Positions 1 through 18,865 of a DNA stretch of 20,000 bases are shown here, in pieces. The notes under the pieces were generated by a model that had not been told where the DNA came from, searched no databases, and saw only the letters and a list, made by a program, of their open reading frames with translations. This DNA comes from an uncultured virus (IMG/VR IMGVR_UViG_3300030376_005322). Taxonomy: Duplodnaviria; Heunggongvirae; Uroviricota; Caudoviricetes. How positions within the stretch are numbered: position 1 is the first letter of the stretch; every line of letters starts with the position of its first letter. Where the stretch lies: the IMG/VR virus record IMGVR_UViG_3300030376_005322, one strand, 5' to 3'. A program made the translations under genes and the position numbers.

Positions 1-466
1 TCACATCGCCTCCGGCAACGCTTTCTTCTAAGTTGCGTAAATAAGTTCTGATCTTGTATATGTCGTGGCGATGCCATGCCGCCGAAACATGTATTTGTTG
101 TTGGTTCCCCAATTTTTCCATTTCGTCATACGGCAATTCTGCCAACCAATCCAAGAACTCTATGGTCCGGGTGAGGTCATTATCTTTGCGGTCTACTTTT
201 TCCTCGCGGACTTCCGGCATAGGTTTTAGAGAGAAGAGTATTTCATCGTCGCCGTCTTTTTCCCAATCACCGTTTTCGCTAACGATCATGTAAACATCAA
301 CATGTTTATTCTCGCTCCGGGCCTTATAGACTTTGTAGGCCTCACGGATTGCAGTATCCGAGAAAGCATAAGAGCGTTGAAACTCGCCATCTACCCACAT
401 TGTGTACCTATGATCTCCGGTCGAATGAGGTGGCTTATGTTCTCTGTAGTCTTTCCAACTAGTCAT
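1..466 (-). CDS. Hypothetical phage protein, 3' end runs off the window (MTSWKDYREHKPPHSTGDHRYTMWVDGEFQ...)
   Basis: Translated by hand: ATG at 466 overlaps the end of the upstream ORF and the frame is open to the window edge. Absent from the ORF track because it has no stop. Confidence 0.8.
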   Translation of the reverse strand, partial: MTSWKDYREHKPPHSTGDHRYTMWVDGEFQRSYAFSDTAIREAYKVYKARSENKHVDVYMIVSENGDWEKDGDDEILFSLKPMPEVREEKVDRKDNDLTRTIEFLDWLAELPYDEMEKLGNQQQIHVSAAWHRHDIYKIRTYLRNLEESVAGGDV

Positions 467-578
467 TGCTTTCTTCTTCCTTAATAGAGAAATGGCTCAT
501 GATATTGTCAAATGCTTCGAGCAAGTTTTTAGCGTGGGCCATCTCTGGGTTTTCGGTATTTTCTGTTTCTTTATCCAT
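459..578 (-). CDS. Small hypothetical protein (39 aa, MDKETENTENPEMAHAK...), leaderless
   Basis: Hand translation. ATG lies 7 nt after the TATCCT -10 box, and the ORF overlaps the next gene start. Confidence 0.7.
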   Translation of the reverse strand: MDKETENTENPEMAHAKNLLEAFDNIMSHFSIKEEESND

Positions 579-585
579 ACCTTTC

Positions 586-649
586 AGGATAAGGGGTAAA
601 TCTGGGAATTACTCATTATTCCTTGAATTGTTTTGTGACCCATGTCACA
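586..649 (-). promoter_or_regulatory. Cassette promoter 1: TGTGA-N6-TCACA box (634-649), core GAGTAATTCCCAGATTTACCCC, -10 TATCCT (586-591)
   Basis: Core is near-identical at ~1030-1052 and ~2655-2677. The palindrome matches the CRP/GlxR consensus. Confidence 0.85.
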
Positions 650-719
650 CGCCCTCCGGTCAATAGAATGACAGCGGGCTCCCGGTTACCCGGGCTTGCA
701 GTAACTTAATGCAGCAAGC

Positions 720-740
720 GTGTGAATCTTGCGTGTGAAT
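720..740 (+). repeat. Two GTGTGAAT direct repeats (720, 733) at the end of an operon
   Basis: Seen directly. The second copy overlaps the TGA stop at 740-742. Confidence 0.85.
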
Positions 741-871
741 CATTGTAAAGATTTCAACACGTTAATTTCAGACTGCCAATCATCTCCGTACTGCTCATTC
801 TCTTCTAAGAAGTTTATGATCGTAGCCAGCACCCGGCTGTTGTATTGTTTATCTGTTTCTTGATAAGTCAT
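740..871 (-). CDS. Small hypothetical protein (43 aa, MTYQETDKQYNSRVLATIINF...)
   Basis: Hand translation, with an AAGGAAG RBS upstream of the ATG. Confidence 0.7.
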   Translation of the reverse strand: MTYQETDKQYNSRVLATIINFLEENEQYGDDWQSEINVLKSLQ

Positions 872-878
872 GGCTTCC

Positions 879-1016
879 TTATATCTTCTCTAGGATCGCG
901 GCGACCTTTTTTAAGGTCTCTAAATCCATATTGTTAATAGCATCTTCGTTGATGAGTTTTGGGCTCCTCCACATGTCTGCTAATTCTTCTGATGGGTCTT
1001 TCTCTGTGTTTGTCAT
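879..1016 (-). CDS. Small hypothetical protein (45 aa, MTNTEKDPSEELADMWRSPK...), leaderless
   Basis: Hand translation. ATG lies 7 nt after the TATCAT -10 box. Confidence 0.7.
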   Translation of the reverse strand: MTNTEKDPSEELADMWRSPKLINEDAINNMDLETLKKVAAILEKI

Positions 1017-1023
1017 ATATTTA

Positions 1024-1073
1024 ATGATAGAGGGTAAATCTGGGAATTACTCTATAATGTGACAGGAGTCACA
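1024..1073 (-). promoter_or_regulatory. Cassette promoter 2: TGTGA-N6-TCACA box (1058-1073), conserved core, -10 TATCAT (1024-1029)
   Basis: Same core as promoters 1 and 3. The palindrome overlaps the stop of the upstream gene. Confidence 0.85.
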
Positions 1074-1386
1074 CATTTATTACCCTTAAGTGCATTCTCC
1101 CATCGTTAGTGATCTGCCCGGTAGGCAAAGCCTCTACCCGAACAACTTCCGCTCTAGGGAAATATTTATCCCGATAAGTCTCAGCCGCCTTCCGGTAACG
1201 CCAGACCGAAGCCGTAGCCATATCCGGGCTGGCATAGAACCGTTCGTGGACGCTGTAATATCTTCCGGTATGTAGTGGTAGGTCCGAGTCGCGTAACGCA
1301 TACATTGAGTGGACAGACTTCTTGTTCCACCCGTGAATCATCTCTATAGGGCCGCGCAGAACATACCCGGTTGGGTGCTTGCTCAT
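1069..1386 (-). CDS. Hypothetical protein (105 aa)
   Basis: ORF track. Co-oriented and tightly packed, with GAGGAGG upstream. Confidence 0.7.
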   Translation of the reverse strand: MSKHPTGYVLRGPIEMIHGWNKKSVHSMYALRDSDLPLHTGRYYSVHERFYASPDMATASVWRYRKAAETYRDKYFPRAEVVRVEALPTGQITNDGRMHLRVINV

Positions 1387-1388
1387 AT

Positions 1389-1532
1389 TTAAGCCTCCTC
1401 AACATATACTTCTTGAAGTTTCCCCATCGGGACTATTTCAGCATCGTTATATGCTTGCTCAGGGTCTCCGGCTTCGATGGTGTATACCATTTGTCCGTAT
1501 TCGTGTACAAATGAAACGTTGTATAAGGTCAT
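1389..1532 (-). CDS. Small acidic protein (47 aa, MTLYNVSFVHEYGQMVYTIEAGDPEQA...), DpnD/PcfM-like pattern
   Basis: Start re-called at the ATGA overlap with the upstream stop. Y-x-V-x-F...EA-x3-E-x-A pattern. Confidence 0.65.
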   Translation of the reverse strand: MTLYNVSFVHEYGQMVYTIEAGDPEQAYNDAEIVPMGKLQEVYVEEA

Positions 1533-2272
1533 GCGTGCACCCCATTCTGTATGTCGTGAATAGTTACTTTCTTCAAACTTTCTAAAGAAATCTCCCATTC
1601 AGGAACAAGACGTTTGGTGTCTCCGCACATCGCTTCAACAACACTTTCACAATTCTCGTAGAACACTCCCCACGCTATTTCTCGTTGATTATCAGTGAGT
1701 GTGTCGCCACGTTCCGGCATCTGGTCAATAAGGTTTTCAGTCTCATCAACTATCTGAACACCGTTATCCCATACGCCGTGATAGCGCCATTCAGGTGCTT
1801 CCATAATTGACAGCACAGTTATGCGGCAACGATATCGTCTAGAAATAGTTTCTAGAGCCTTCTCCGGTGGGCACCACGCACTTGTAAAAGCGTAAGCGTG
1901 AACGAATAGTTCATCAGCGACAGAGCGAACTTTATTTATATCCAATTCGCCATAGTCGGTACTGAACCCTGCGGTACTGTCAATTTTGCGGAAATCGTAG
2001 TCTCCCCACTTGGAACCCCAATTCAGATCAGCCCATAGGCGACCGTCAATAGTCCCGGCTTCATCATCTTGGTCAGTGAACGCACTGCCGATAACTTCCC
2101 CATCTATAACGATGTCTTTACGACCATTTTCAGGGAAGGGAATCAAATGACTAATAAAAGAGTCAATTTCTCCGGCGGCGGTATCTTCCAACACAAGATT
2201 TAGAATCTTCCGTTGGGCAGGTGGTGTGTCTGTGAAATCCACAAACATTTTGTTAAATACGTGATTAGGCAT
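1529..2272 (-). CDS. DUF1281/YubB-like ferredoxin-fold protein
   Basis: Family motifs MPNH..N, W...NWGSKW and FTSAWCPP. Confidence 0.75.
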   Translation of the reverse strand: MPNHVFNKMFVDFTDTPPAQRKILNLVLEDTAAGEIDSFISHLIPFPENGRKDIVIDGEVIGSAFTDQDDEAGTIDGRLWADLNWGSKWGDYDFRKIDSTAGFSTDYGELDINKVRSVADELFVHAYAFTSAWCPPEKALETISRRYRCRITVLSIMEAPEWRYHGVWDNGVQIVDETENLIDQMPERGDTLTDNQREIAWGVFYENCESVVEAMCGDTKRLVPEWEISLESLKKVTIHDIQNGVHA

Positions 2273-2292
2273 TTTTTAATCTTTCTTGTAAG

Positions 2293-2341
2293 GGTAACCC
2301 TTAACCGAGTCCCCGAAGGGACCCGGTTGGGTGGGTTTACC
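2293..2341 (-). other. Long intergenic RNA hairpin capped by a C(UUCG)G tetraloop
   Basis: Minus strand reads GGTAAACCC..AACCGGGTCCC TTCG GGGACTCGGTT..GGGTTACC, with no U tail. Confidence 0.7.
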
Positions 2342-2344
2342 GAA

Positions 2345-2605
2345 TTAGTAAACTGATATTGTGGTTTCTGCTTCTAAAGTGATAGTTCCACTAGCGAGAG
2401 ATTCTTTAATTTGATCTGTAATCAAATCAGAGAAATCGAACTCGTCTATTTCAGCGCTGACGTAATCAGAGAAATCTACATCTCCAATAGCGTTTTCAAC
2501 AGCAGTTTCAATAGTTCCCTGCATATCTTCGTCTACTTCAGTAGAGGGCAGATAAGGAACTAATGCTTCTGCTAATGCTTTAAGCAATTTTTCTATTGTG
2601 TCCAT
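2345..2605 (-). CDS. Highly acidic hypothetical protein (86 aa)
   Basis: ORF track, AGGAAG RBS, first gene after promoter 3. Confidence 0.8.
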   Translation of the reverse strand: MDTIEKLLKALAEALVPYLPSTEVDEDMQGTIETAVENAIGDVDFSDYVSAEIDEFDFSDLITDQIKESLASGTITLEAETTISVY

Positions 2606-2648
2606 TATTTCTTCCTAACTATATTTCGGTGGTATATCCACATATATT

Positions 2649-2712
2649 ACGATAGGGGGTAAATCTGGGAATTACTCAAAAAAGACGTGTTTGTTTTGTG
2701 ACGTGTGTCACA
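2649..2712 (-). promoter_or_regulatory. Cassette promoter 3: TGTGA-N6-TCACA box (2697-2712), conserved core, -10 TATCGT (2649-2654)
   Basis: Same core, and the same 42-nt box-to--10 spacing as promoter 1. Confidence 0.85.
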
Positions 2713-2750
2713 TGCTAAAACAGCGCCTCCTCCGGTCTTCCCGGGCTACT

Positions 2751-2803
2751 GAAAAAAGAAAATACCGCCCGGGGAGCGAAAGAAGTAACAACCCGGGCGG
2801 TAT
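2751..2803 (-). terminator. Rho-independent terminator
   Basis: 12-bp inverted repeat ATACCGCCCGGG/CCCGGGCGGTAT followed on the minus strand by TTTCTTTTTT. Confidence 0.7.
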
Positions 2804-2807
2804 AGGA

Positions 2808-2862
2808 AATCTGGGAATGCAAATCTGGGATTGCAGCCACGTGTGAATTTTAGCGTGTGAAT
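2808..2862 (+). repeat. AATCTGGGAATGCAAATCTGGGA block plus two GTGTGAAT copies
   Basis: The 23-nt block is identical at 4098-4120. GTGTGAAT at 2841 and 2855 flank the stop codon at 2850-2852. Confidence 0.85.
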
Positions 2863-3044
2863 TCCTCCGGATAGTGTATTTTAGTGATCCGGTTACATTC
2901 TTCTGCCCAGAACTTTGCTTTTTTTATGTCCTCTAATGTGATGTCATCTTCGTCATTCACATAGTTTTCCATATTGTGAGCCTGTGTTTCGTAGAGTAAA
3001 TCCAACGCTTCGATTACGATGTCTTTAGGGGTGAAGTCGCTCAT
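2850..3044 (-). CDS. Hypothetical protein (64 aa)
   Basis: ORF track, ATGA coupling. Confidence 0.75.
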   Translation of the reverse strand: MSDFTPKDIVIEALDLLYETQAHNMENYVNDEDDITLEDIKKAKFWAEECNRITKIHYPEEFTR

Positions 3045-3505
3045 TTCTCCCCCAGTCCTTCGGGAAAGTTTTTCTCTAGGTATGTCCGAAAGAATCTTAA
3101 GTCTCGTAAAATGGAATGAAGTCCTTCGTCGTACTGCTCGTGTTCTTCATTAGACATCTCTAATAGGTTCTTTGAATAAGGCTTTAAGCATTCCAAGAAC
3201 CTTATGGCTTTACCGACACTTTCTGACCAGCAGCCTCTGTCCGGTGACGGTGTATCCCAGTCAATGTCGAACTTGTCGATATTTCCTAAGTGGACATAGA
3301 TGTCTGCTGGTACTCCGGCACCTACATGGTCGCCTTCTTCTACCACGGTAATCAAAAGCCCATGATCGTCATGCCCTTCCTTGACCCCAATTACTTTTGC
3401 GCGAAGCCAAGGCATGGCTACCGTGTCTCCGAATGTTCGGGCTCCTCCCCAGTAATTGAATTCAGTTCCGACAGTTGTTAATTTGTCTAATTCTGATTGG
3501 CTCAT
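3041..3505 (-). CDS. Hypothetical protein (154 aa)
   Basis: ORF track, ATGA coupling, GAGGA RBS. Confidence 0.8.
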   Translation of the reverse strand: MSQSELDKLTTVGTEFNYWGGARTFGDTVAMPWLRAKVIGVKEGHDDHGLLITVVEEGDHVGAGVPADIYVHLGNIDKFDIDWDTPSPDRGCWSESVGKAIRFLECLKPYSKNLLEMSNEEHEQYDEGLHSILRDLRFFRTYLEKNFPEGLGEK

Positions 3506-3699
3506 TGTTCCTCAACTCCTACTATTGTGCCGTCCGCCGCTGGGTCCTCAACGTATGCTGGTTCCCAGTTCCCGGTGTTCCGTAATGTGTTCCAGTTCGC
3601 TTCGTCATCAACGAACTTTTGCATTGCTTCCTGTTCACTGTCGGCATCAACCATGACAGCGAACTCTGCTTCTGCAGTGAATGTAACTTGGTATTCCAT
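3502..3699 (-). CDS. Small acidic protein, DpnD/PcfM-like pattern
   Basis: MEYQVTF...VDADSEQEAMQK pattern, TAATG coupling. Confidence 0.7.
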   Translation of the reverse strand: MEYQVTFTAEAEFAVMVDADSEQEAMQKFVDDEANWNTLRNTGNWEPAYVEDPAADGTIVGVEEQ

Positions 3700-3935
3700 T
3701 ATTGCCCTTTCTTAACGTTGAACCGTGCGAGAGTTTCCTCATCAAGGTGTGGTGCGATTACGTCCATGAACCATAGGTAACGGTCAATATCTTTGATGCC
3801 AGTCAAAAATTCTGTGACTGCTTCCTTGCGGTCTTTACGAGCCGCTTCGATTACTTGTTGTTCAAACATTGCTAAAATGTTTTTATAACCCTCATCACTT
3901 GGGGTCATATCTACTGTCATTACTTCTTCGCTCAT
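3699..3935 (-). CDS. Hypothetical protein (78 aa)
   Basis: ORF track, first gene after promoter 4. Confidence 0.75.
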   Translation of the reverse strand: MSEEVMTVDMTPSDEGYKNILAMFEQQVIEAARKDRKEAVTEFLTGIKDIDRYLWFMDVIAPHLDEETLARFNVKKGQ

Positions 3936-3980
3936 TGTTTTCTTTCTGTCAATAAATGTTGTGGAACTTCCACATATCTA

Positions 3981-4044
3981 ATGGTACACCTTTGGTTGAC
4001 TTTTACCTCATTATTTAAGGGTTAATTTTGTGACGCATGTCACA
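3981..4044 (-). promoter_or_regulatory. Cassette promoter 4: TGTGA-N6-TCACA box (4029-4044) and -10 TACCAT (3981-3986), with a divergent core
   Basis: Box-to--10 spacing is again 42 nt although the intervening sequence differs. Confidence 0.75.
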
Positions 4045-4097
4045 TGCCCGTCCGGTCCCTTCCGGGCTAACCAATCCACACCGCCCGGTCCCTCCCG

Positions 4098-4165
4098 AAT
4101 CTGGGAATGCAAATCTGGGAGTACACCGGCGTGTGAATCTGGGCGTGTGAATTTCACGTGTGAAT
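4098..4165 (+). repeat. AATCTGGGA pair plus three GTGTGAAT copies (4131, 4145, 4158)
   Basis: Seen directly. The last copy overlaps the TAA stop at 4165-4167. Confidence 0.85.
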
Positions 4166-4335
4166 TACCAGTCTCTAACCTCGTCTGTAGTGATTTCCAC
4201 CAAAGGTCCAGCCTCTGCTAAAAGATCAGGGATATGAACAGTTTCGGCATAATGCTCTGCCTCGTCTCTGTCCATTTCAACAGTTGTGATTAGTATGACA
4301 TTTTCGTAAACAAACGAAATATTATATTTTCCCAT
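4165..4335 (-). CDS. Small acidic protein (56 aa, MGKYNISFVYENVILITTVEMDRDEA...)
   Basis: Hand translation, TAATG coupling. N-terminus resembles that of 1389-1532. Confidence 0.7.
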   Translation of the reverse strand: MGKYNISFVYENVILITTVEMDRDEAEHYAETVHIPDLLAEAGPLVEITTDEVRDW

Positions 4336-4481
4336 TAGATTATCTCATGCCTTCCGTTCTCGTTCTTCTCGGTGAACTTATCTGCACAACAAACATCTCC
4401 ACCTGTGCTATCAAAGAACATGCCTTCATGTTCGTAAATCCGATCCCCACACCAGTCGCATTCTCCGCCTGAATCGCTCAT
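4335..4481 (-). CDS. Small Cys-containing protein (48 aa, MSDSGGECDWCGDRIY...VCCAD), possible zinc ribbon
   Basis: Hand translation, ATGA coupling, CxxC...CC motif. Confidence 0.65.
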   Translation of the reverse strand: MSDSGGECDWCGDRIYEHEGMFFDSTGGDVCCADKFTEKNENGRHEII

Positions 4482-4906
4482 TGGTTTATGTACCATTCAT
4501 CTACGAAGTGCTCCGCTATTTCACGCCATTGAACTCGCCAGAAGGAACCGATGTCGTCACGAACGTCTGAAAAACCGTAGCCCTTACCTTGGACGATTTC
4601 CGACAGTTGGCAATAATCACCAACAAAGAATTCTTCTAACGCACCAGCAACGTCGTTATGTAAAATATTCCAGCCTGCATTAGTTATCGCAGTAGAGCCA
4701 AATGCTTCGCCTTCGTCAGGGTCCTCGCTATTCCAATGACCAGCCATTTCAAAAACATGGTCAAATATGCCCAGTTCTTTAACCTGTAATTCGCCAGCCC
4801 AAAGGTTTACTGCCCATGTCTCGCGATTAGTCCAGCCGTTGTAATCTTCAAAACCCTCGTGACTTCTCCAATCTATGCGCCGCATTACTTCCTGCTTTTC
4901 TTTCAT
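4478..4906 (-). CDS. Conserved phage hypothetical protein with a YNGWTNRETWAVNLW motif
   Basis: Start re-called to the ATG at 4906 (GGAGGTGA RBS, ATGA overlap). The motif is typical of a widespread phage family of unknown function. Confidence 0.8.
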   Translation of the reverse strand: MKEKQEVMRRIDWRSHEGFEDYNGWTNRETWAVNLWAGELQVKELGIFDHVFEMAGHWNSEDPDEGEAFGSTAITNAGWNILHNDVAGALEEFFVGDYCQLSEIVQGKGYGFSDVRDDIGSFWRVQWREIAEHFVDEWYINQ

Positions 4907-5157
4907 TGCGTCACCTCCACGCCAATAATACGCATGCTGTGTATCTCCATATTGAAACGAGTGAGAGAGTCCCAGCATTCATTGGGCATCGCATACGATC
5001 CTTCGGATAGTTGTGACCATGCCACCGCTCGGGCTTGTAACTCGTTTTGAATTTCGTGACTGAAAGAATCTAATTCGACTTCCACAGTTAGCGCTTCGTT
5101 TAGTAATATTTTGACAAAATAGTTTGTCACTGTTTTCTGTTTTACTACCATTACCAT
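4903..5157 (-). CDS. Hypothetical protein (84 aa)
   Basis: ORF track, TAAGGA upstream, first gene after promoter 5. Confidence 0.7.
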   Translation of the reverse strand: MVMVVKQKTVTNYFVKILLNEALTVEVELDSFSHEIQNELQARAVAWSQLSEGSYAMPNECWDSLTRFNMEIHSMRIIGVEVTQ

Positions 5158-5187
5158 TCCTTAATGTTGTAAATATGTACACCATCT

Positions 5188-5231
5188 ATGGTAGGGGGTA
5201 AATCTGTAATTGACAAGTGACATGTGTCACA
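5188..5231 (-). promoter_or_regulatory. Cassette promoter 5: AGTGA-N6-TCACA box (5216-5231), CAGATTTACCCCC core, -10 TACCAT (5188-5193)
   Basis: Core partly conserved. Box-to--10 spacing is 22 nt. Confidence 0.8.
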
Positions 5232-5280
5232 CCCAAACAAGCGCCCTCCCGGGTCACCTCCCGGCCTTACCCGGTCTCGA

Positions 5281-5508
5281 AATCTGGGGATACAGCGCCC
5301 GGTGTCAATCTACGTGTGAATCTTGCCCGGTGCGGTTACGCAAGTGTGAATTTTGCCCGGTGTGAATCTGGGAATACAGAATCGGGGATACTTTCATGTG
5401 TGAATTTTCATGTGTGAATCTGGGCACACAAACCCACGTGTGAATCCATGTGTGAATCCCCACCCGCATCAGGGAGATGCAGGCAGGAACCCAACCACAT
5501 GTGTGAAT
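5281..5508 (+). repeat. Dense non-coding cluster of oriented GTGTGAAT (8 copies) and AATCTGGG repeats
   Basis: GTGTGAAT at 5314, 5344, 5360, 5398, 5412, 5438, 5450 and 5501. AATCTGGG at 5281, 5365 and 5417. Confidence 0.9.
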
Positions 5509-5718
5509 TTAATCGACGAGAGAAGCGGAACCTCTAGTTCCAGCCAAACGAGAAGCCGCAGCACCCTTCACTACAGAAAGGGCAGCAGACACGCCAGCCA
5601 TAACAATCATCTTCCACTGATCAACACCAAGGTCCATGACACTATTAGTTGACATAGCGCCAATAGCCGCTTGGCAAAAAGTCGCCAACGTCCTCTCAGC
5701 GAGGTCTTTATAATTCAT
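5509..5718 (-). CDS. Holin, r1t-like family
   Basis: LAERTLATFCQA..., two hydrophobic segments, C-terminal SASLVD, AGGAG RBS. Confidence 0.8.
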   Translation of the reverse strand: MNYKDLAERTLATFCQAAIGAMSTNSVMDLGVDQWKMIVMAGVSAALSVVKGAAASRLAGTRGSASLVD

Positions 5719-5771
5719 TACTACTCCTAACTAAAAAAAAACAATCCACGCCAGCAGGGGCGCATTTCGCC

Positions 5772-5884
5772 TTTTTTGTTGTTTTTGGTTTGTTGTTTGT
5801 TTGTTTCTGGGGGTTTGGGGGTTTGTGGTTAGTTTTTCTATACTATTGGTCGTGTGTTGGTTTACTTGTTGGGGTGTGTGTTTT
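5772..5884 (+). other. G/T-skewed low-complexity non-coding tract
   Basis: The plus strand is almost entirely G and T (ttgtttttggtttgttgtttg...). Confidence 0.8.
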
Positions 5885-6104
5885 ACAGGCTTTCTGCCAA
5901 AGTTATCGCTGCAGCAATGATGGCTGTCAGCAACGACGCTGGTACTGCGTAAATCCATTTCTCTACAGTACGTACCCTTTGTTCAAGGTCTGTTATTTGA
6001 CGATGCTGATTTAACGTTAGATCATCTATTTTCTGTTCAATAGATTCAAGTCTTTCCGCTAACACCGCCAACGCAACATCGACGCTTTGCTGACTATTAG
6101 CCAT
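5883..6104 (-). CDS. Coiled-coil protein with a C-terminal TM helix (XhlA-like membrane protein)
   Basis: Heptad pattern followed by WIYAVPASLLTAIIAAAITL. Start re-called to MANSQQ. Confidence 0.65.
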   Translation of the reverse strand: MANSQQSVDVALAVLAERLESIEQKIDDLTLNQHRQITDLEQRVRTVEKWIYAVPASLLTAIIAAAITLAESL

Positions 6105-6651
6105 CTTCAGGTTCACAGTCACAAGCATCTACAGGGCATACACACCCAATGTGACATTGACACAACTCTACTTCTTCGGATACTTCGACATCTTCAGCAT
6201 CTACTACTTCCTCTACTATTGGTGTTACTTCCTCTATAGGGATTTCAGAAGGTTGCTCTTGAGGAGACGCCTGCGGCGGGCTTACGCTTGGCCACTTAGC
6301 GCCTGAAGATAACCCCATACTTGCCTCAAATTTTGCTTTCGAGTCATCAGCCCAGCAGCGTAAATAAAACATGTAAGGAGCGAACTCCTCAGAAGCGTGG
6401 GCTGTCGGATACTGAATGCCTTGACCGCATCTAGCGGCTAAGCAGCCATCTTCGACGAGGCTTGCTATTAGTTCACGGATAGCGTCTGCTTGTTTCCGTG
6501 ACATCACACCTTTAGGTGTTTCGACTTGAACATTCAAAACGTTCCCTACCGGGTTCACTTTTGGTTCGTTTACTTTTCCACTGGCCTTAACTACCCAAGC
6601 ATTTTTAGCGGGGGAGACAGGACCAATCCATATTTCGTTTGGTGTAGTCAT
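6097..6651 (-). CDS. Hypothetical protein with an acidic, Cys-rich C-terminal tail; leaderless
   Basis: ORF track. TAAACT -10 lies 6 nt before the ATG. Confidence 0.75.
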   Translation of the reverse strand: MTTPNEIWIGPVSPAKNAWVVKASGKVNEPKVNPVGNVLNVQVETPKGVMSRKQADAIRELIASLVEDGCLAARCGQGIQYPTAHASEEFAPYMFYLRCWADDSKAKFEASMGLSSGAKWPSVSPPQASPQEQPSEIPIEEVTPIVEEVVDAEDVEVSEEVELCQCHIGCVCPVDACDCEPEDG

Positions 6652-6692
6652 ATCTAGAGTTTAGGGCACCACACTTACGAGGCGTTGCAGGG

Positions 6693-6899
6693 TCAGGCCA
6701 CTCGGCTCTTAAAAACTGGGGTTTTCTTTAATAACTGGGTGGAAGGAGTAAGCACTGGTTTCACCGATGTTTCCCGTGTTTTTTCAAGATTTCTTATTTT
6801 TTTTTCGGCTTCTTGTATTAGGTCTGCGAATGCTTTGAATGCTGCTTCTGCAGAGGCCGAAAATTGTGTGTTTTCAGGGGTTTTTTCTCTTTTTTCCAT
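6693..6899 (-). CDS. Small hypothetical coiled-coil protein (MEKREKTPENTQF...)
   Basis: GGAAGGA RBS before the ATG at 6899. Confidence 0.5.
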   Translation of the reverse strand: MEKREKTPENTQFSASAEAAFKAFADLIQEAEKKIRNLEKTRETSVKPVLTPSTQLLKKTPVFKSRVA

Positions 6900-7025
6900 C
6901 TCTGTTCCTTCCGTGGGTCTACCATCTTTACACATAAAATCGGATAGGGAGACCTACCCTGCACCTTTTTTCTAAGAAATTCTATTAAAGTCGTGTACAG
7001 GACATCTATATGTTCGGAGGTCACT

Positions 7026-7385
7026 ATGCGGTATACATTGGACAGACCAGAGAATTCTATAACAGCCTTTGGTTTACAGGACAGGCTTAAAGGGCCTGCC
7101 GTTGTTGGGGTTCTTATTCCCCTCCCCGAGTCATCGAAATCAACTGCTTCTAAGTTCGGCAGGTACACGTTAGGTAATTGGGAAACTCCCCCACCTTATG
7201 CTTGCTTTAGCACTAAAGAAGGTTCTATGGTTATCCGTTGGAACCCTAACGCTTATTCCATTGACATTGTTGAAGATTCTTTAGACCGGATTTTGCAAGG
7301 TTACCTATCTGAAACGAAGGTACTTGGCGAGTTCGGAGGTAATGGTAGAGTGTGGGTTGTGAGAAAAGAGAGAGTTAATGCCTGA
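7026..7385 (+). CDS. Hypothetical protein (119 aa)
   Basis: GGAGGT RBS at 7016-7021. First of three plus-strand genes. Confidence 0.7.
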   Translation: MRYTLDRPENSITAFGLQDRLKGPAVVGVLIPLPESSKSTASKFGRYTLGNWETPPPYACFSTKEGSMVIRWNPNAYSIDIVEDSLDRILQGYLSETKVLGEFGGNGRVWVVRKERVNA

Positions 7386-7659
7386 TAGCCAAAAGTATAG
7401 ACACAACGTCTTTCATCCCGACAATTATCAAGGGGCTATGCATGACGATGTTCTGCAGCGTTCTTCTGGAGATAGAATGAGTTTACCGGGGTACATGCGT
7501 ACACCTGAGCCGGAAGTTCCCTCTGTTACACGTGAGGTTTCGATAGAAACTGTTACCGCAGTGCGTTCTTTGCTAGAGGATATGGCAGAAACTTTCCGAG
7601 TGTGTGGTATGTTTGATCTTGCCGAACAAGCCGATGTAGTTGTCGAACTGCTCGCTTAA
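7378..7659 (+). CDS. Hypothetical protein (93 aa)
   Basis: ORF track, overlaps the upstream stop. Confidence 0.7.
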   Translation: MPDSQKYRHNVFHPDNYQGAMHDDVLQRSSGDRMSLPGYMRTPEPEVPSVTREVSIETVTAVRSLLEDMAETFRVCGMFDLAEQADVVVELLA

Positions 7660-7681
7660 CCTTCTACCCCTTTAAGGAACC

Positions 7682-7918
7682 ATGCCAGAGAACAAATGTA
7701 CAGGCACTGAAGCATCTTATGTCAGAGGATGTCGCTGTGACGAGTGTAAGACATCACGGAGTCTCGCCGTAAAGAGGCGCAGTCTCGAGAAACGCGCAGT
7801 CGAGCGGCCAGCGCCTCCAAAACCAGAGAAAAAAGAAAAAGTATTCCGACTACCACGACTGGACTCCTACGACGACTGTTTAACGCGTGGACAAGTGTAC
7901 AAGTTCCGCGGGTACTAG
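7682..7918 (+). CDS. Small basic Cys-rich protein (GT..SY..GCRCDEC), probable zinc-binding
   Basis: Motif recurrent in actinophage small proteins, TAAGGA RBS. Confidence 0.7.
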   Translation: MPENKCTGTEASYVRGCRCDECKTSRSLAVKRRSLEKRAVERPAPPKPEKKEKVFRLPRLDSYDDCLTRGQVYKFRGY

Positions 7919-10227: not shown

Positions 10228-10825
10228 CTTCGTCTCCGTCCCATGCGTCTAAGACTTCTTTCGGTAAGTCTCCCGCATCAATAAGTGCTTCTAGTACTTT
10301 TCTCTGTCTCTTTGAGTCTATCTCTTCTACCACATGTACATGGGCTGTTAATTGAGTCATAGGACCGCCTTGTGGACCTGTAACTTCTAAACGTGTTGCT
10401 GGGTCTGACCAGCGCTGTGGGTATGCCTTAGCAAGGAACCTCTCTGCTGCCCTCCAGTCGCCATCTACGGCCTCTGTGTACCAACGTGTTACCAGAGCCG
10501 CCTCAGCCTTCCCTGTTGCCTTCTCAAGTTCATTTACGAACCATAGGCAGTCTTCATCAGTGGCGTCCAAAGCCTCTCTTCTAAGTAGTTTCTCTCTTGC
10601 TTCTTCACCTATTTGAATCCACTTATAGAAAGATTGTTTCGTTACTCCGTAAGCCTCATAAGCGGTCTTTTTATAGTTGCCAGCCCCTATGAGTTTTACT
10701 ATTCCTTCGAGCGTTTGCTTCGAGGTATAAAGCCCAGTTCGTCTTACCTTATTTTTTTCAGGGGGAGAGTACTCTGGTTCCATATTTTGTTTATACCTGT
10801 TCTTAGGTTCCTTGTTTGCGGTCAT
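10151..10825 (-). CDS. terS: Terminase small subunit-like protein
   Basis: HTH (GVTKQSFYKW), DWRAAERFL..YPQRW and LEVTGPQGGP. Lies directly upstream of TerL. Confidence 0.8.
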   Translation of the reverse strand: MTANKEPKNRYKQNMEPEYSPPEKNKVRRTGLYTSKQTLEGIVKLIGAGNYKKTAYEAYGVTKQSFYKWIQIGEEAREKLLRREALDATDEDCLWFVNELEKATGKAEAALVTRWYTEAVDGDWRAAERFLAKAYPQRWSDPATRLEVTGPQGGPMTQLTAHVHVVEEIDSKRQRKVLEALIDAGDLPKEVLDAWDGDEDGSEDEGSIIDADVVEETMQPENPA

Positions 10826-11601
10826 TTAATTCCTACCCACCCAGCGAAGTTCATCCATCTCCAGAAACATTCTCTGTGGGTGAATCCGCTGTGCTCTAAT
10901 AGATATTCGTTCCATTCTTCAGTAATAGGGGTCATAACCCCTTCAAGGCTAAGTCTTTTACGTTCGATTTGTTCCTCTGAATAGCCCATACTCCGTTTAT
11001 GGTTATGGTAAATGTGGATCATCTCTTCGTTGAGTTGTTGTGTATCGCCTTCAAGTTTTTCGACCAGAACAAGCCTGCCTTGCGGCTTAAGAACTCTATA
11101 TAACTCATCAAGAATCCTAAGCCTGTGAACAACAGGAGTGAACTGAAGCGTCAATACACACAGTACCACATCAAACGACTCATCTTCAAAGGCTAGATGG
11201 TCTCTTAGGTCATGGAAATAGAATCGGTAACGGTCATCATTCTCCCCCAACTCTAAAGCCCTGTTAAGCATCGGCTCCGAAATATCAGTGCCTACCAGTC
11301 TCGTGATCGTGTGATTATTTGCTTTAGCGTAATCATCTAAGCCTTTAAGGGCTAAACCGTTCGAGCAGCCAACATCTAAAACATCTTGAATATGAACATC
11401 AGGGCCGTGAAATGCTTTTTCGGAATCAATATAGAAAGCATTTTCATTCTGGTAGTTCACAACCCAAGGAGCCGCTATAGCGTTTACTGCTTCCCTCATT
11501 TTTCTGTAATCAGGGATGCTGCGTTCAAGCATATTGTCGAAGACAGCCGCTACTTCTTCATCGAACTCCCAGTTATCTTCTGGGATAACTTCATCACGCA
11601 T
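10822..11601 (-). CDS. cmoA: CmoA-like carboxy-S-adenosylmethionine synthase
   Basis: WEFDEEVAAVFDNMLERSIPDY, LDVGCSNG, TLQF, LVLVEK, HKRSMGYSEEQIERKRLSLEGVM (Arg equivalent to CmoA R199) and FWRWMNF. Confidence 0.85.
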   Translation of the reverse strand: MRDEVIPEDNWEFDEEVAAVFDNMLERSIPDYRKMREAVNAIAAPWVVNYQNENAFYIDSEKAFHGPDVHIQDVLDVGCSNGLALKGLDDYAKANNHTITRLVGTDISEPMLNRALELGENDDRYRFYFHDLRDHLAFEDESFDVVLCVLTLQFTPVVHRLRILDELYRVLKPQGRLVLVEKLEGDTQQLNEEMIHIYHNHKRSMGYSEEQIERKRLSLEGVMTPITEEWNEYLLEHSGFTHRECFWRWMNFAGWVGIK

Positions 11602-12495: not shown

Positions 12496-14076
12496 TTAGA
12501 GCGCCATGCCTAGTCGCCGTGCGAAGGCATCTAACGCCTGTTCAGCCCTATCTAGGCTTCCCTCTGGATAGGGAAGATCAAATTCAAAGCGTATTGCTTC
12601 GGCTAAAGCCACCGGGTTTATCTCTACCGGGTCGCCCGCTATGCACTGGACGAGGCTGTTAGGGCTGTAAAGATAGGCACGAACGTCACGGAAACCAACT
12701 CTCCAAAGTTTCTCCCATTCATTAGTAGAGAAATACTTTTGGACTTTTGGCCTTTTTATTAAATCAGAAACAACAACTCCTTCTTCATATCCAGCCGAGA
12801 ATGAGGAGTCGAATTGTGTTTCGTGATTAGAGATATTGTCTTTCTGGCCTGTAGCCGCCAAATACCTATCTGCTGTTCTAGAAATAGCGCCAGCGTAAAC
12901 AGTTGTAGATGGAGAAGATAACGCTGAAATAATACGAACGATGTGTAAACGATCACTATGGAAAGGGACACTATTAAGCACAGAGGCTAAGAAAATCGAA
13001 TCAAATTCTGTCCCGTCAGCAACACGGGCAAGAAACATGTCAGTTATGTAACGAGCGCCTTCTATATCGAAACCTGAATCTTTACCGCCTGTGTAATAAG
13101 GCTCAAAGGCTACACAGTCGATCCCCATTACATCTTGCATAGTGTGAGACTTGTCGAGAAGACCAGCCCCAAAATCTAAAACTGTCGTTCCATACCATTT
13201 CTTCCATGCATCAACATGGACAGGGTTTTCGACATCAAACATAGATGCGGCTCTTTGAGTTTTACCTGTCCGAGATAAGGCAGATATTAAATCACAACAC
13301 ATAGTTGGCATTAAAAAATTTTGCCTGTTGCTAGCCCTACGGAAAGAGTTGTACCGGAGAACGTCTGCATACTTATCCTCTAAATCGAAATCCATAGATA
13401 AATGGTTGAGCATTATCTGGGCCAAATTTGCTTTGCTTTTCGAGACTGTGATCGTTTGGACTTCTGGTATCCCTACTTCTGTGGCGTGCTGTAACCTCCC
13501 GATACCATTAACAACATCGCCTTTATGAGTGACGACAAGAGGGATACTTGTTTTCCCCCAATGGTAAAGACTCTCTGCTTGTCGAATTGTGTGGTATTTG
13601 AACTGCTGAATATTTTTAGTTGCAAGTTCCCTAGTATCTTCTTTCTTAATACCCATACATGGATACCATTCGTCTGAATTGACTTCTATATCAGGCAAAC
13701 CTTCTGAGGCCCCAAGAACAACTGATAAAGGCAAGCGTTCCGAGAGGGACTCTCCAGTATCTTGTTTGTCCATATCGTTAGTTGCTCGATTAAAAACTAT
13801 ATTTACGCCTTTACGACGTTGAAGATCAAGCCCATCAAGAAACACAACCGGGACCTTAGAAGCGCCCAATTCTCTAGCAGCATCTAAACGTTGATGCCCT
13901 GATAAAACCTCTCCTGCTGGAGTTGCATACATGGGTAAAAGCCAACCAAGTTTTTTAAGGCTGGTTTTAACCATCTCGAAACGGTGAGGATCAGACCTAC
14001 GAGGGTTGTAAGCGGCTTTCTCTAAAGAGTCAATATCCACTAATTTGATTTGGACAAACTTCGGGTTCCTACTCAT
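12496..14076 (-). CDS. ParB/Srx-domain protein fused to a class I SAM-dependent transferase domain
   Basis: N-terminal YNPR...VLSGHQRL and a second VVNGIGRL. C-terminal VLDFGAG, AFEPYY and FDSIFLASVLNSVP. Confidence 0.8.
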   Translation of the reverse strand: MSRNPKFVQIKLVDIDSLEKAAYNPRRSDPHRFEMVKTSLKKLGWLLPMYATPAGEVLSGHQRLDAARELGASKVPVVFLDGLDLQRRKGVNIVFNRATNDMDKQDTGESLSERLPLSVVLGASEGLPDIEVNSDEWYPCMGIKKEDTRELATKNIQQFKYHTIRQAESLYHWGKTSIPLVVTHKGDVVNGIGRLQHATEVGIPEVQTITVSKSKANLAQIMLNHLSMDFDLEDKYADVLRYNSFRRASNRQNFLMPTMCCDLISALSRTGKTQRAASMFDVENPVHVDAWKKWYGTTVLDFGAGLLDKSHTMQDVMGIDCVAFEPYYTGGKDSGFDIEGARYITDMFLARVADGTEFDSIFLASVLNSVPFHSDRLHIVRIISALSSPSTTVYAGAISRTADRYLAATGQKDNISNHETQFDSSFSAGYEEGVVVSDLIKRPKVQKYFSTNEWEKLWRVGFRDVRAYLYSPNSLVQCIAGDPVEINPVALAEAIRFEFDLPYPEGSLDRAEQALDAFARRLGMAL

Positions 14077-15401
14077 CTCTTAAATTCGTTATGTCCAGTT
14101 GTAGGATCAGCAACCGAAGCCCACACTGAGAAAGAGGACGTATCAAGTTTGAGTAACTGCCCTATCCTGTACCCTCTTTCCTCTTTAGATAAATACCCAT
14201 CAGTAATCATTTTGTGTTCCCATTCTGAATATTGTCTACCGCAAACTTGAACGCTAGTGCTCCCAAACTTTAAGGTTGCTACGCGTCGGACATCCGCCGG
14301 AGCGTCGATAATTGCTGCTGGGTCTCTCTCTTGAGGAAGGTCTTTAAGTACTTCCTCAATGTCTGCTGGCTGAAAGCCTGTACCATCAAGGCTGTCTAAG
14401 TCCATTAACACATTCGCTAAGGACGAATTGTAGTAACCGGCTTTATCTGCCAACCGATTATCAGCAAGCATTATCCTTGTGGCCTCATCGTCATCTAAAT
14501 CCATAAAGACAACAGGAACCTCATCCCAGCCAAGAGATTTAGCAGCCTGCCAAGTATTGTTACCTTTAAGTATCAGGCCGCTTGATTCCTGAATTAGTAA
14601 AGGCCTATAAACGCCATTCACCCTTAAAGATTCACTAATAGCCCCAATGTCGCCTTGCCGAGCGTTCTCTGGGTGAGGAGAAACTGAATCTATAGGAACC
14701 CAATTCAATGGGTCTAGCCCAACATGTTTAGGAGTCTCCCCAGAAATCGTTTTCCATTTTTTAGATTTAATATTTGGTTTAGGGTCAGGGTCCTCGGTTA
14801 GCCCTAACATTCCTCTTATGTGATGAACCGCTTCCTTAGCCCCACCGCAGGAATCAGATATGTTACCGAACCACTCTTTATAGTATTCGGCTTCGACAAG
14901 TAAAAGATTTTTGCCTATAGAAATCTTTGCAGTAGTTGCTTCATCTTGACTATTGGGACCATCGCCTCCTGAGAAGATATCTTCAAAGTCGCTAAATTCT
15001 TCCATCTGGTAAAGTCGTTCGAGTGAGCGTTTATCCCACCCTGAACCTTCTAAGTCAGGTGAAAGTCGTTCAATTAGTTCTATGAGATTCTGTCGGTCAT
15101 AAGTCGCTAAATCAGAAGTGCGATTATCTGCTAACAGAATTCTTTTTGCCTGCTGGTCATCAACTTCCACATGGACAACAGCAATCTCTTTCCACCCGAG
15201 AGATTTTGCTGCTTTCCATGTGTGGTTGCCTGCAAGGATATTTCCGTTGCGTAGGTCTACGACAATGGGCGCGTACTGACCATTGACATCTAAAGACTCT
15301 GCTATACCGGGCACGTCACCCTGTCTAGGATTAGCAGGGTGAGACTGAACTGAGTCAATCCCCACTATGAGTTCTTCTAAGTCGTCAGCAATATTTCCCA
15401 T
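14073..15401 (-). CDS. Tandem ParB/Srx N-terminal-domain protein
   Basis: Two homologous halves: HPANPRQGD..ILAGNHTWKAAKSLGW..LLADNR and HPENARQGD..ILKGNNTWQAAKSLGW..MLADNR. Confidence 0.9.
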   Translation of the reverse strand: MGNIADDLEELIVGIDSVQSHPANPRQGDVPGIAESLDVNGQYAPIVVDLRNGNILAGNHTWKAAKSLGWKEIAVVHVEVDDQQAKRILLADNRTSDLATYDRQNLIELIERLSPDLEGSGWDKRSLERLYQMEEFSDFEDIFSGGDGPNSQDEATTAKISIGKNLLLVEAEYYKEWFGNISDSCGGAKEAVHHIRGMLGLTEDPDPKPNIKSKKWKTISGETPKHVGLDPLNWVPIDSVSPHPENARQGDIGAISESLRVNGVYRPLLIQESSGLILKGNNTWQAAKSLGWDEVPVVFMDLDDDEATRIMLADNRLADKAGYYNSSLANVLMDLDSLDGTGFQPADIEEVLKDLPQERDPAAIIDAPADVRRVATLKFGSTSVQVCGRQYSEWEHKMITDGYLSKEERGYRIGQLLKLDTSSFSVWASVADPTTGHNEFKR

Positions 15402-18571: not shown

Positions 18572-18865
18572 TCACAACTTGCGTCTATTCAACATTTTCT
18601 GTTCCTGAATACTCCTAGCCAAAGCAACCATCTGCTGAACTAAAGGCTTAGAAACTCCCATTTCTTTAGCGATCTGGGAGTAAGTAAACCCATCTCCTCC
18701 GTTACCGAAATCGCTTGCTTCTTTAACTGATAAAGCACGCTCGGCAATAGCAGAACGCCTAAACGCATCTGCCGCAGGCAGCACCCTCTCATTAAGAAGC
18801 CTCGCTCTTTCCATTGGGTCTTCTACATCTTTTACTTGTTCAAATAACTCTATTAAATTGTCCAT
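18572..18865 (-). CDS. HTH DNA-binding protein
   Basis: FTYSQIAKEMGVSKPLVQQMV. Confidence 0.75.
   Translation of the reverse strand: MDNLIELFEQVKDVEDPMERARLLNERVLPAADAFRRSAIAERALSVKEASDFGNGGDGFTYSQIAKEMGVSKPLVQQMVALARSIQEQKMLNRRKL

Follow-up and report, generated by a model that had tools for sequence, protein, structure and literature searches.

Results

An oriented word forms tandem arrays at operon ends

We analyzed a 20,000-nucleotide stretch of an uncultured Caudoviricetes virus (IMG/VR record IMGVR_UViG_3300030376_005322; this whole stretch is called the window) and found that a short word, GTGTGAAT, is repeated in a single orientation, in tandem arrays that sit at the ends of operons. 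The sharpness of the word, its conservation across G+C content and divergence, its confinement to an accessory region and its near-absolute polarity point to a signal under selection that would be read by a specific factor. Our preferred reading, to which we assign a probability of roughly 0.4, is that the arrays would be oriented protein-binding boundary sites (roadblocks or insulators) at operon ends, with recombination as a by-product.

The word is present in 15 exact copies, all on the plus strand and all inside 720-5508. A k-mer and orientation scan returned exactly the 15 positions that the original prediction had listed from a manual count, with no copy on the minus strand and none past 5508. 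Occurrence at background frequency in both orientations does not describe this distribution (15:0): in 200 dinucleotide-preserving shuffles the chance expectation was 0.66 copies (standard deviation 0.75, maximum 3), and the copies are linked to stop codons. With few exceptions the genes of the window are on the minus strand, and the word in the sense direction is therefore ATTCACAC, the form used from here on. The stop codons that the arrays were said to overlap or abut (740-742, 2850-2852, 4165-4167 and 5509-5511) proved to be true ends of minus-strand open reading frames (ORFs), namely 740..871, 2850..3044, 4165..4335 and 5509..5718. Read in sense, the four junctions are TGATTCACAC, TAAAATTCACAC, TAATTCACAC and TAAATTCACAC, and the copy at 2855-2862 falls within the final codons of its gene. 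The claim that every operon ends in this way goes too far: there are six intergenic gaps in 1-5718, of which four have an array and the short ones at 1017-1068 and 2273-2344 lack it. A second word, AATCTGGG, was found 11 times on the plus strand and never on the minus strand, and the pairs reported for it at 2808/2822 and 4098/4112 are indeed 14 bp apart.

For comparison we used the IMG/VR records G001-G005 and G010, which are fragmentary: G001 (11.7 kb, 86-98% identical to the window), G002 (64 kb), G003 (a permuted, near-identical copy of G002 that adds ~22 kb and brings the genome to ~86 kb), G004 (48.7 kb), G005 (38.6 kb, 56.6% G+C) and G010 (29.6 kb, 58% G+C). Across 96 copies from eight lineage members the full unit in sense is A-R-ATTCACAC-G. 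Position -2 is A in 78 copies, position -1 is G (65) or A (30), the base following the word is G in 50, and the base preceding the TCACA core is T in every one of the 96. The preference for A-R at -2/-1 allows a TAA or TAG stop codon to merge with the unit. The distance from the stop to the first copy is 0-2 nt in the window, in G001 and in two cases of G005, and ranges from 13 to ~110 nt elsewhere. The idea that arrays start exactly at the stop thus applies to the window sublineage and fails in the other relatives, where the array often lies behind a hairpin. Words with one mismatch stay at background (sense/antisense 5/12 in the window, 28/26 in G002, 39/25 in G004 and 12/13 in G005), the exception being ATTCACCC, with 7 copies in G004. 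G010 (L470/L471) uses mainly ATTCACCC (18 copies, plus 3 of ATTCACAC) in the same strict orientation (21:0); it is a natural specificity variant that is helpful for finding the reader.

Among 57 gaps of at most 60 bp between neighbouring copies, 26 measure 12-14 bp and 17 measure 36-40 bp, the remaining 14 being of other lengths; both preferred spacings are out of phase with the DNA helix. A single spacing lattice was considered and rejected, as ~12.8 nt fits the cluster in the window only partly and G002 fits ~18.3.

The arrays are a conserved trait of one phage clade

The polarity of the word is found throughout the relatives, with sense:antisense counts of 10:0 in G001, 21:0 in G002, 20:0 in G003, 17:1 in G004 and 20:1 in G005; reversed-word controls gave 0-1 copies in the same records. 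All copies of G002/G003 but two lie inside ~13 kb of the ~86-kb genome, and both exceptions are within coding sequence.

We retrieved 80 loci by means of the holin-like gene that adjoins the largest array of the window; 77 of them had at least 300 bp of downstream sequence. At least 2 copies within 400 bp downstream of the holin were found at 8/77 loci, and the holin-anchored totals were 68 sense and 0 antisense copies downstream against 0 sense and 1 antisense copy upstream. Arrays occur at so few holin loci because the holin is common to unrelated phages; four such holin-bearing phages (G006-G009) carry 2-3 scattered copies each. We therefore discarded the holin family as a clade marker in favour of TerL, which defines the clade better. 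Among 39 TerL loci (72-100% identity), arrays were present in all eight that extend to the post-holin region (43-62% G+C); the remaining 31 end earlier, and three with ~4 kb downstream reach neither holin nor array. These data indicate that the arrays are a conserved trait of the TerL-defined clade. The post-holin array is the largest in every relative and its copy number is variable, with 8 copies in the window and 6 in G001. Conserved genes of the clade share only 65-72% DNA identity, and nothing but the modules described below is common to the cassette regions. A literature search at the level of result listings returned no description of the motif or the clade, and a full-text search for the 8-mer gave primer-type matches only.

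Arrays open a composite module with CRP-type palindromes

The original prediction missed the minus-strand genes, a larger module to which the arrays belong, and palindromes of the CRP type at promoter-activating distances (Table 1). In the long gaps of the window the order in sense is stop codon, ATTCACAC array, ATTCCCAGATT(T) repeats, GC-rich hairpins made from CCGG words, the palindrome TGTGAC-N4-GTCACA, the box GAGTAATTCCCAGATTTACCCC, a TAYCNT -10-like hexamer, and finally leader and start codon. Further oriented words, CCCAGATT and ACCGGR, follow the array within modules. The relatives keep the order of the module and alter its secondary words, which are strand-locked as well (CCGGAG 47:2 in G002; ACCGGA 33:1 and ACCGCAT 16:0 in G004; CACCGGG 12:2 in G005; CCCAGAT 11:0).

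Activators of the CRP family bind TGTGA-N6-TCACA, with class I sites centred at -61.5 and class II sites at -41.5. The module palindromes match this consensus perfectly or with 1-2 mismatches, and in the window most are centred 62.5 or 42.5 bp upstream of the presumed transcription start. The distance is 62.5 bp in G002 and 42.5 bp in three modules of G004; of seven G005 modules, four have 42.5 bp, two have 72.5 bp and one has 62.5 bp. For the second palindrome of the window (M2) the homologous hexamer gives 48.5 bp and another hexamer 41.5 bp. GTGTGAAT contains TGTGA, so that the TCACA core of the sense word is the half-site of the palindromes in the same modules, and in three places the first copy of an array completes a full TGTGA-N6-TCACA site. 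The arrays differ from CRP/FNR sites in being direct repeats of a single half-site with different flanks. We consider that the palindromes almost certainly work on DNA, and an activator of the CRP/GlxR type seems to control the cassette promoters. As no CRP-family gene scored above the cut-off in any of five records, host Crp/GlxR would be the likeliest reader of the palindromes. A simple terminator and promoter scan yielded counts near the shuffle expectation.

Several promoters in or near cassette regions deserve mention in their own right. At 1014-1036 the start codon of ORF 879..1016 sits 7 nt past a TATCAT -10-like hexamer, and the message of this ORF is probably leaderless. In G002, a conserved extended -10 (TGGTATAGT / TGGTAGTAT) in a promoter near L141:8320 drives the leftward gene L141:8041-8283 (-), which has an array directly to its right; G004 and G005 have equivalents, and the layout resembles a divergent switch. 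G002 also carries tandem CGAACGTTTGTTCGA boxes and a CGAACATATGTTTG box, both LexA/SOS-box-like, in cassette intergenic regions (L141:8520-8560 and ~11900), and among its products is a small protein that contains a LexA DNA-binding domain (L142:406-720).

Table 1. Positions of arrays, oriented words, hairpin, palindromes and promoter boxes in the window.
Feature	Position	Strand	Remarks
Array 1: 2 ATTCACAC copies, 13 bp apart	720..740	-	overlaps TGA stop of ORF 740..871
Array 2: 2 copies, 14 bp apart	2841..2862	-	flanks TAA stop of ORF 2850..3044
Array 3: 3 copies, spacings 13 and 14	4131..4165	-	begins in TAA stop of ORF 4165..4335
Array 4: 8 copies	5314..5508	-	directly after holin-like gene 5509..5718
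Second oriented word ATTCCCAGATTT (sense), 2 copies, 14 bp apart	2808..2829	-	
ATTCCCAGATTT, further sites	4098-4119, 4136-4143, 5281-5288, 5365-5372, 5417-5424	-	
GC-rich hairpin ATACCGCCCGGG/CCCGGGCGGTAT, then T-run in sense	2747..2803	-	intrinsic-terminator-like, downstream of array 2
M1 palindrome TGTGAC-N4-GTCACA	634..649	.	centre 62.5 bp upstream of presumed start; -10 TATCCT 586-591
M2 palindrome	1058..1073	.	promoter-only module without array or hairpin
M3 palindrome	2697..2712	.	centre 62.5 bp upstream of presumed start; -10 TATCGT 2649-2654
M4 palindrome	4029..4044	.	centre 62.5 bp upstream of presumed start; -10 TACCAT 3981-3986
M5 imperfect palindrome TGTGACACATGTCACT	5216..5231	.	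centre 42.5 bp upstream of presumed start; -10 TACCAT 5188-5193
Conserved promoter-proximal box GAGTAATTCCCAGATTTACCCC, then TAYCNT	2655..2680	-	also 590-615, 1030-1055; variant 5195-5215
Accessory cassette region	1..5157	-	small ORFan genes, five transcription units bounded by modules

Cassettes are exchanged at array junctions

The suggestion that the repeats are cassette recombination boundaries is directly supported by the joints found in close relatives. Compared with G001, the segment 4155-4330 of the window is replaced and one copy is lost. A contig of sequencing run X4 joins 4154 to 4344 with 208 other letters in between, and run X5 has a loose end at 4154. In L035, L036 and L278, 4153-4475 is absent and the joint lies at 4152. 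Replacement and deletion, found in different relatives, are thus two types of event that share a junction between copies two and three, at 4152-4154 inside array 3. Gain and loss of whole units is seen in array 4, where X4 lacks 16 nt at 5344 and a deletion of equal length affects this part of the array in G001. Variant contigs diverge at the edges of palindromes (1073, 4026 and 4034) and a further junction lies at 5359; other breakpoints are inside genes (3043, 3445, 4907 and 5122). The enrichment of junctions at arrays and palindromes is suggestive.

A proposed directional boundary at operon ends and its alternatives

How might the arrays work? A sequence-specific protein would read the unit A-R-ATTCACAC-G on DNA, with the sites close-packed at ~13-14 bp each. 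Within an oriented intergenic control module the array would come first, next to the upstream gene; the modules would belong to an accessory region of the early or host-takeover type, and each would close one rightward operon and open the next. The arrays would form a directional boundary to rightward transcription, backing weak, U-less hairpin terminators, with the strongest array standing behind the late/lysis operon. They would double as recombination joints at which genes are added, removed or swapped, because they are the sole conserved sequence between unrelated cassettes.

It is the link to operon ends that suggests a directional boundary to rightward transcription. In G002, the arrays at 47915 and 51781 close rightward operons that face leftward genes and no rightward promoter comes after them, and a single copy at 54567 lies 13 nt past a gene with no plus-strand promoter following. 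Together with M2, a promoter without an array, these cases indicate that arrays track the ends of rightward operons, not promoters. Reading on DNA is favoured by the identity of the TCACA core with the half-site of the palindromes in the same module (we estimate the chance of such an overlap at ~1%) and by the three first copies that complete full palindromes. It is also favoured by the 13-14-bp packing, which fits monomers on asymmetric sites; the solved structure of a cluster A repressor, that of TipsytheTRex, has a monomer footprint on a 13-bp asymmetric site (PMC9283540). The orientation of the arrays does not follow that of inverted neighbours. Three minus-strand genes of G002 (48639-49028, 49709-50119 and 52371-52817) have plus-strand homologues in G005/G004 (E-values 1e-41, 1e-40 and 6e-28), and the arrays beside them are not inverted; either array orientation is selected relative to the main direction of the genome, or recent inversions spared the modules. 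We infer protein binding, reading at the DNA level and the roadblock effect from these sequence patterns, and likewise the identity of the binder, for which candidates are a clade-core 97-aa helix-turn-helix (HTH) protein (18572-18865), a lambda-O-like winged-helix initiator and three small genes at 6993-7918. ParB was considered as the reader and rejected, since only its N-terminal NTPase domain matches, no HTH was found and no ParA was seen.

A number of points weigh against such a boundary. The arrays of the window lie upstream of the hairpins and thus inside 3' untranslated regions (3' UTRs). In five lineages outside the window sublineage, the first post-holin copy lies in the upper part of a conserved stem-loop of 15 pairs, 3 of them with compensatory changes (5/5 lineages), which hints at an RNA context. 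The G002 array at 48374 is placed between two leftward genes, where a rightward roadblock would have no obvious client. Uniform orientation could have been inherited through duplication of modules rather than selected. The base before TCACA is T in arrays and G in nearly all palindrome halves, so that the reader may differ, and the non-helical spacings suit a single-stranded reader as well as independent monomers. No binder presents itself among known families: the PHROGs/Pfam scans, limited to such families and to incomplete records, gave no repressor family, Phage_integrase was found in 0/5 records and CRP-family genes were lacking as described above. Finally, two conventions enter the argument, as genes of the relatives were called with a simple longest-ORF script and transcription was presumed to start 7 nt after the TAnnnT hexamer.

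The original prediction had offered RNA 3'-end signals beside protein-bound polar roadblocks, and both are compatible with the arrays. In a reading at the RNA level or on the non-template strand, the 3' UTR would carry AGAUUCACAC tracks that become accessible when the ribosome departs at the stop codon. Either a termination factor, be it Rho or an RNA-binding protein of the phage, or an antiterminator would load there; in the latter version the factor would compete with the hairpins and set the read-through between cassettes. We hold this main rival of the boundary reading to be possible if somewhat unlikely. Near-absolute orientation is what it would predict, be it 68:0 downstream of holin genes or 21:0 and the like per genome, and the equally strict orientation of other module words such as CCGGAG, ACCGGA and CCCAGAT agrees with it. 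So do the arrays that begin at stop codons (all four in the window and the two cases in G005), the GC-rich hairpins that come after the arrays of the window and the first post-holin copy at the apex of the conserved stem-loop. Each Rho subunit binds ~13 nt, and rut sites are rich in C residues spaced ~12 nt apart; the spacings of 12-14 and 36-40 nt are close to multiples of 13 and non-helical. C/G exceeds 1 in 21/26 arrays, on a sense strand that is generally G-rich. However, with the motif removed this applies to just 13/26 arrays. A rut site is an unstructured, C-rich, G-poor stretch of ~80 nt downstream of the stop, with pause sites after it; here the order of array and hairpin is not constant. 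Strong hairpins often precede the arrays of G002, G004 and other relatives, two of them with T-runs (G002 46036 and G004 47359), so that most transcripts would stop short of the arrays. Moreover, Rho would have no need of an exact 10-mer, and the TCACA shared with the DNA palindromes would be a coincidence of the ~1% kind estimated above. Rfam returned no family at E<=1 in 1-7000, and no tRNA was found. For this stretch two RNA runs yielded just 2 and 5 short contigs, too thin to reveal RNA ends, and their ends coincide with haplotype branch points and are therefore uninformative in this respect. A narrower version, in which the arrays would be a ~13-nt-periodic single-stranded loading track for a ring-shaped or oligomeric terminator (Rho or a phage adaptor) placed where the ribosome leaves, seems to us distinctly unlikely. 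As a separate observation, RNA-library contigs of two studies stop at 2370-2371 without a loose end where a DNA contig continues, which weakly hints that an RNA ends there, in the 3'-terminal part of ORF 2345..2605.

Could the arrays serve the activator that uses the palindromes? As a half-site antenna, reservoir or decoy of a CRP-type protein (host Crp/GlxR or a phage dimer), they would tune the next promoter or titrate the host factor. The common TCACA core, the three hybrid sites with TGTGAC before the first copy, the class I/II distances of the palindromes and the placement of arrays 150-300 bp upstream of the promoter in most modules are in line with this idea, which we nevertheless think improbable. 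Arrays without a rightward promoter exist at all three G002 positions given above, and M2 is a promoter without an array. T precedes TCACA in 96/96 copies against G in nearly all palindrome halves, the extra conserved bases are asymmetric (A-R-A-T upstream, C downstream), and direct repeats 13-14 bp apart are ill-suited to a symmetric dimer.

The lambda-O-like initiator could also be the reader in a different sense, with the arrays as iteron-like sites for replication control or handcuffing, bound by monomers on the direct repeats and by dimers on the palindromes. Plasmids of the Rep/iteron type pair direct repeats with a related inverted repeat, and their iterons typically measure 17-22 bp. 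The modules recall this pairing, the initiator is clade-core, its HTH weakly matches HTH_Crp_2 in 4/5 records (13.9-19.5 bits, under the 27-bit cut-off) and no iterons were found in the initiator gene of G002 or around it. Against iterons stand the seven to ten arrays dispersed over operon ends instead of one origin, units of 13-14 bp that are shorter than typical iterons, and the lack of any AT-rich unwinding region noted. In addition, the recognition helix of the initiator is nearly unchanged in G010, which uses ATTCACCC, although the four sequences compared are too few for this to be decisive. We rate this explanation as very unlikely.

We are just as sceptical of the notion that nothing reads the arrays, which would then be duplicated filler homogenised by recombination between modules and offering only microhomology for cassette shuffling. 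The junctions and unit-sized indels at arrays and palindromes and the unstable copy number (8 versus 6) would suit filler, and the layout parallels the PeSL-bounded ORFan regions of T4-type phages (PMC2839356 and PMC4122927). Yet the exact 8-mer persists at 65-72% gene identity and from 43 to 62% G+C while spacers and cassettes share nothing, and one-mismatch copies are unenriched, which argues for selection on every position. Least probable of all is a polar signal for a DNA-processing machine (a Chi-like word for a host end-resection nuclease, or a sequence orienting a translocase or packaging motor): an exact, strand-locked tandem 8-mer whose orientation is independent of inverted neighbour genes would be apt, but the word is limited to 13 kb of ~86 kb at the starts of intergenic modules, where further oriented words and regulatory elements surround it, the ends of the genome could not be located, and a scan of genome contigs gave unrelated tandem repeats and no enrichment in a host genome.

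Source phage, host and neighbouring genes

The window is from a siphovirus-like phage. PHROGs/Pfam matches in it comprise a helicase, two ParB-N-domain proteins, a nuclease, a CmoA-like methyltransferase, the small and large terminase, a 2OG-Fe(II) oxygenase, a RusA-like resolvase and the holin-like protein at 5509-5718; matches to these families are almost nil for the genes in 1-5157. Comparison of 1-6000 with the phages collection by blastn gave no match. The best TerL matches in the same collection (tblastn) were below 48% identity and belong to psiM2/psiM100 and Gordonia phages, so that there is no cultured relative to lend annotation.

The host of the clade would appear to be an actinobacterium. 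Two WhiB-like genes among the head genes of G003 indicate such a host, and among Atlas clusters those nearest to the small HTH protein at 18572-18865 are mainly from Actinomycetota. G002 has CGAAC-N4-GTTCG boxes, which are of the Gram-positive LexA type. Genes of G005 that start 6 nt past a TAGTAT -10 element imply leaderless messages. The stretch was found in marine metagenomes of 15 studies. A triple-motif scan of genome contigs gave 120 loci, those inspected being regular tandem repeats unrelated to the phage, and revealed neither host nor prophage. Separately, an Acidimicrobiales metagenome-assembled genome (71% G+C) has three intergenic ATTCACAC copies spaced 13 and 36 bp (L205:2153-2209); being part of a local CACACCATC repeat, this trio may be due to chance.

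Some other features of the window caught our attention. Two adjoining ParB-N-domain proteins, one with two such domains, are encoded at 12496-15401 (-) and are clade-core. Beside the small terminase, 10822-11601 (-) encodes a homologue of the CmoA-like carboxy-S-adenosylmethionine synthase (E 1.8e-41, under the family cut-off). The relatives encode at least five 2OG-Fe(II) oxygenases plus a TauD-like gene, and together with the CmoA-like gene these may form a nucleic-acid or tRNA modification set. A long low-complexity, GT-rich tract (CA-rich in sense) lies upstream of the holin-like gene at 5720-5880, with a similar one in L328. The three small opposite-strand genes at 6993-7918 (+) are kept in all four larger relatives and are possible regulators; one product of 78 aa has a C..GCRCxxC zinc-ribbon-like motif. 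An Atlas look-up of the 130-aa opposite-strand protein gave no usable match.

Relation to known systems

Oriented intergenic words of actinophages (stoperators and SAS) are already known and their biology is only partly understood. The clade described here adds a different design: strand-locked tandem arrays stand at operon ends, promoters look wired to a CRP-type activator at textbook class I/II distances, and the modules are also the joints at which cassettes are exchanged. Should the arrays be directional transcription boundaries, actinobacterial genetics would gain insulators that are compact and portable, and the independent expression of dozens of ORFan cassettes in a lytic phage would be explained. 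Should they be read as RNA, they could offer a defined handle on factor-dependent termination in Actinobacteria. A single-stranded loading track would be the first 'rut-like' element with a sharply defined consensus, by which the phage would insulate its cassettes in a directional, factor-dependent manner. The CRP-type wiring on its own suggests a coupling of early gene expression in marine actinophages to the cAMP state of the host.

Among known systems, integron attC boundaries were considered and discarded: no tyrosine recombinase was found in five records, and the repeats are direct and not of the attC type (an imperfect palindrome with a GTTRRRY core at the 3' ends of cassettes). The start-associated sequences (SAS/ESAS) of cluster K mycobacteriophages resemble the arrays (PMC3203893) as asymmetric repeats of the 13-bp class in one orientation whose function is not known, and in their location in the non-structural half of the genome near an inverted repeat. 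In contrast to the arrays, which lie on the side of the stop codon and far from starts, SAS sit 3-7 bp before start codons and have an AGGAG core (PMC3203893).

The original prediction had drawn an analogy to the stoperators of mycobacteriophage L5, which fairly describes how the arrays might act and does not extend to membership. The cluster A stoperators bound by L5 gp71 share with the arrays (PMC9283540) an actinophage origin, a short, asymmetric, sharply conserved multicopy word, an orientation that follows transcription, an intergenic location at gene ends and a unit of ~13 bp that is about the size of a monomer footprint. Orientation along most genes was found here too (15:0, 21:0, 20:0, 17:1, 20:1 and 21:0), with the G002 array at 48374 as the exception. 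Stoperators, however, are more than 20 single 13-bp sites dispersed over the genome in short intergenic gaps, whereas here a 10-bp unit forms tandem arrays of 1-8 copies within ~13 kb. Stoperators also serve as operator of the early lytic promoter; the promoters of the modules carry the palindrome and a ATTCCCAGATTTACCCC box and not ATTCACAC. Stoperator systems belong to temperate phages with a cognate two-domain monomeric immunity repressor; in scans for known families, no repressor homologue or integrase was found in the incomplete records of this clade.

The PeSLs of T4-type phages provide a second parallel. These are likewise small composite terminator-promoter modules that flank ORFans in a hyperplastic region and at which insertions, deletions and replacements join (PMC2839356 and PMC4122927). 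PeSLs consist of a stem-loop with a sigma-70 promoter in phages of a Gram-negative host, without arrays of an oriented word and without an activator palindrome. The modules reported here are made of different elements and belong to an unrelated siphovirus-like phage with WhiB-bearing relatives, and membership in the PeSL sequence family fails. The design works most like L5-type stoperators and T4-type PeSLs and is a member of neither.

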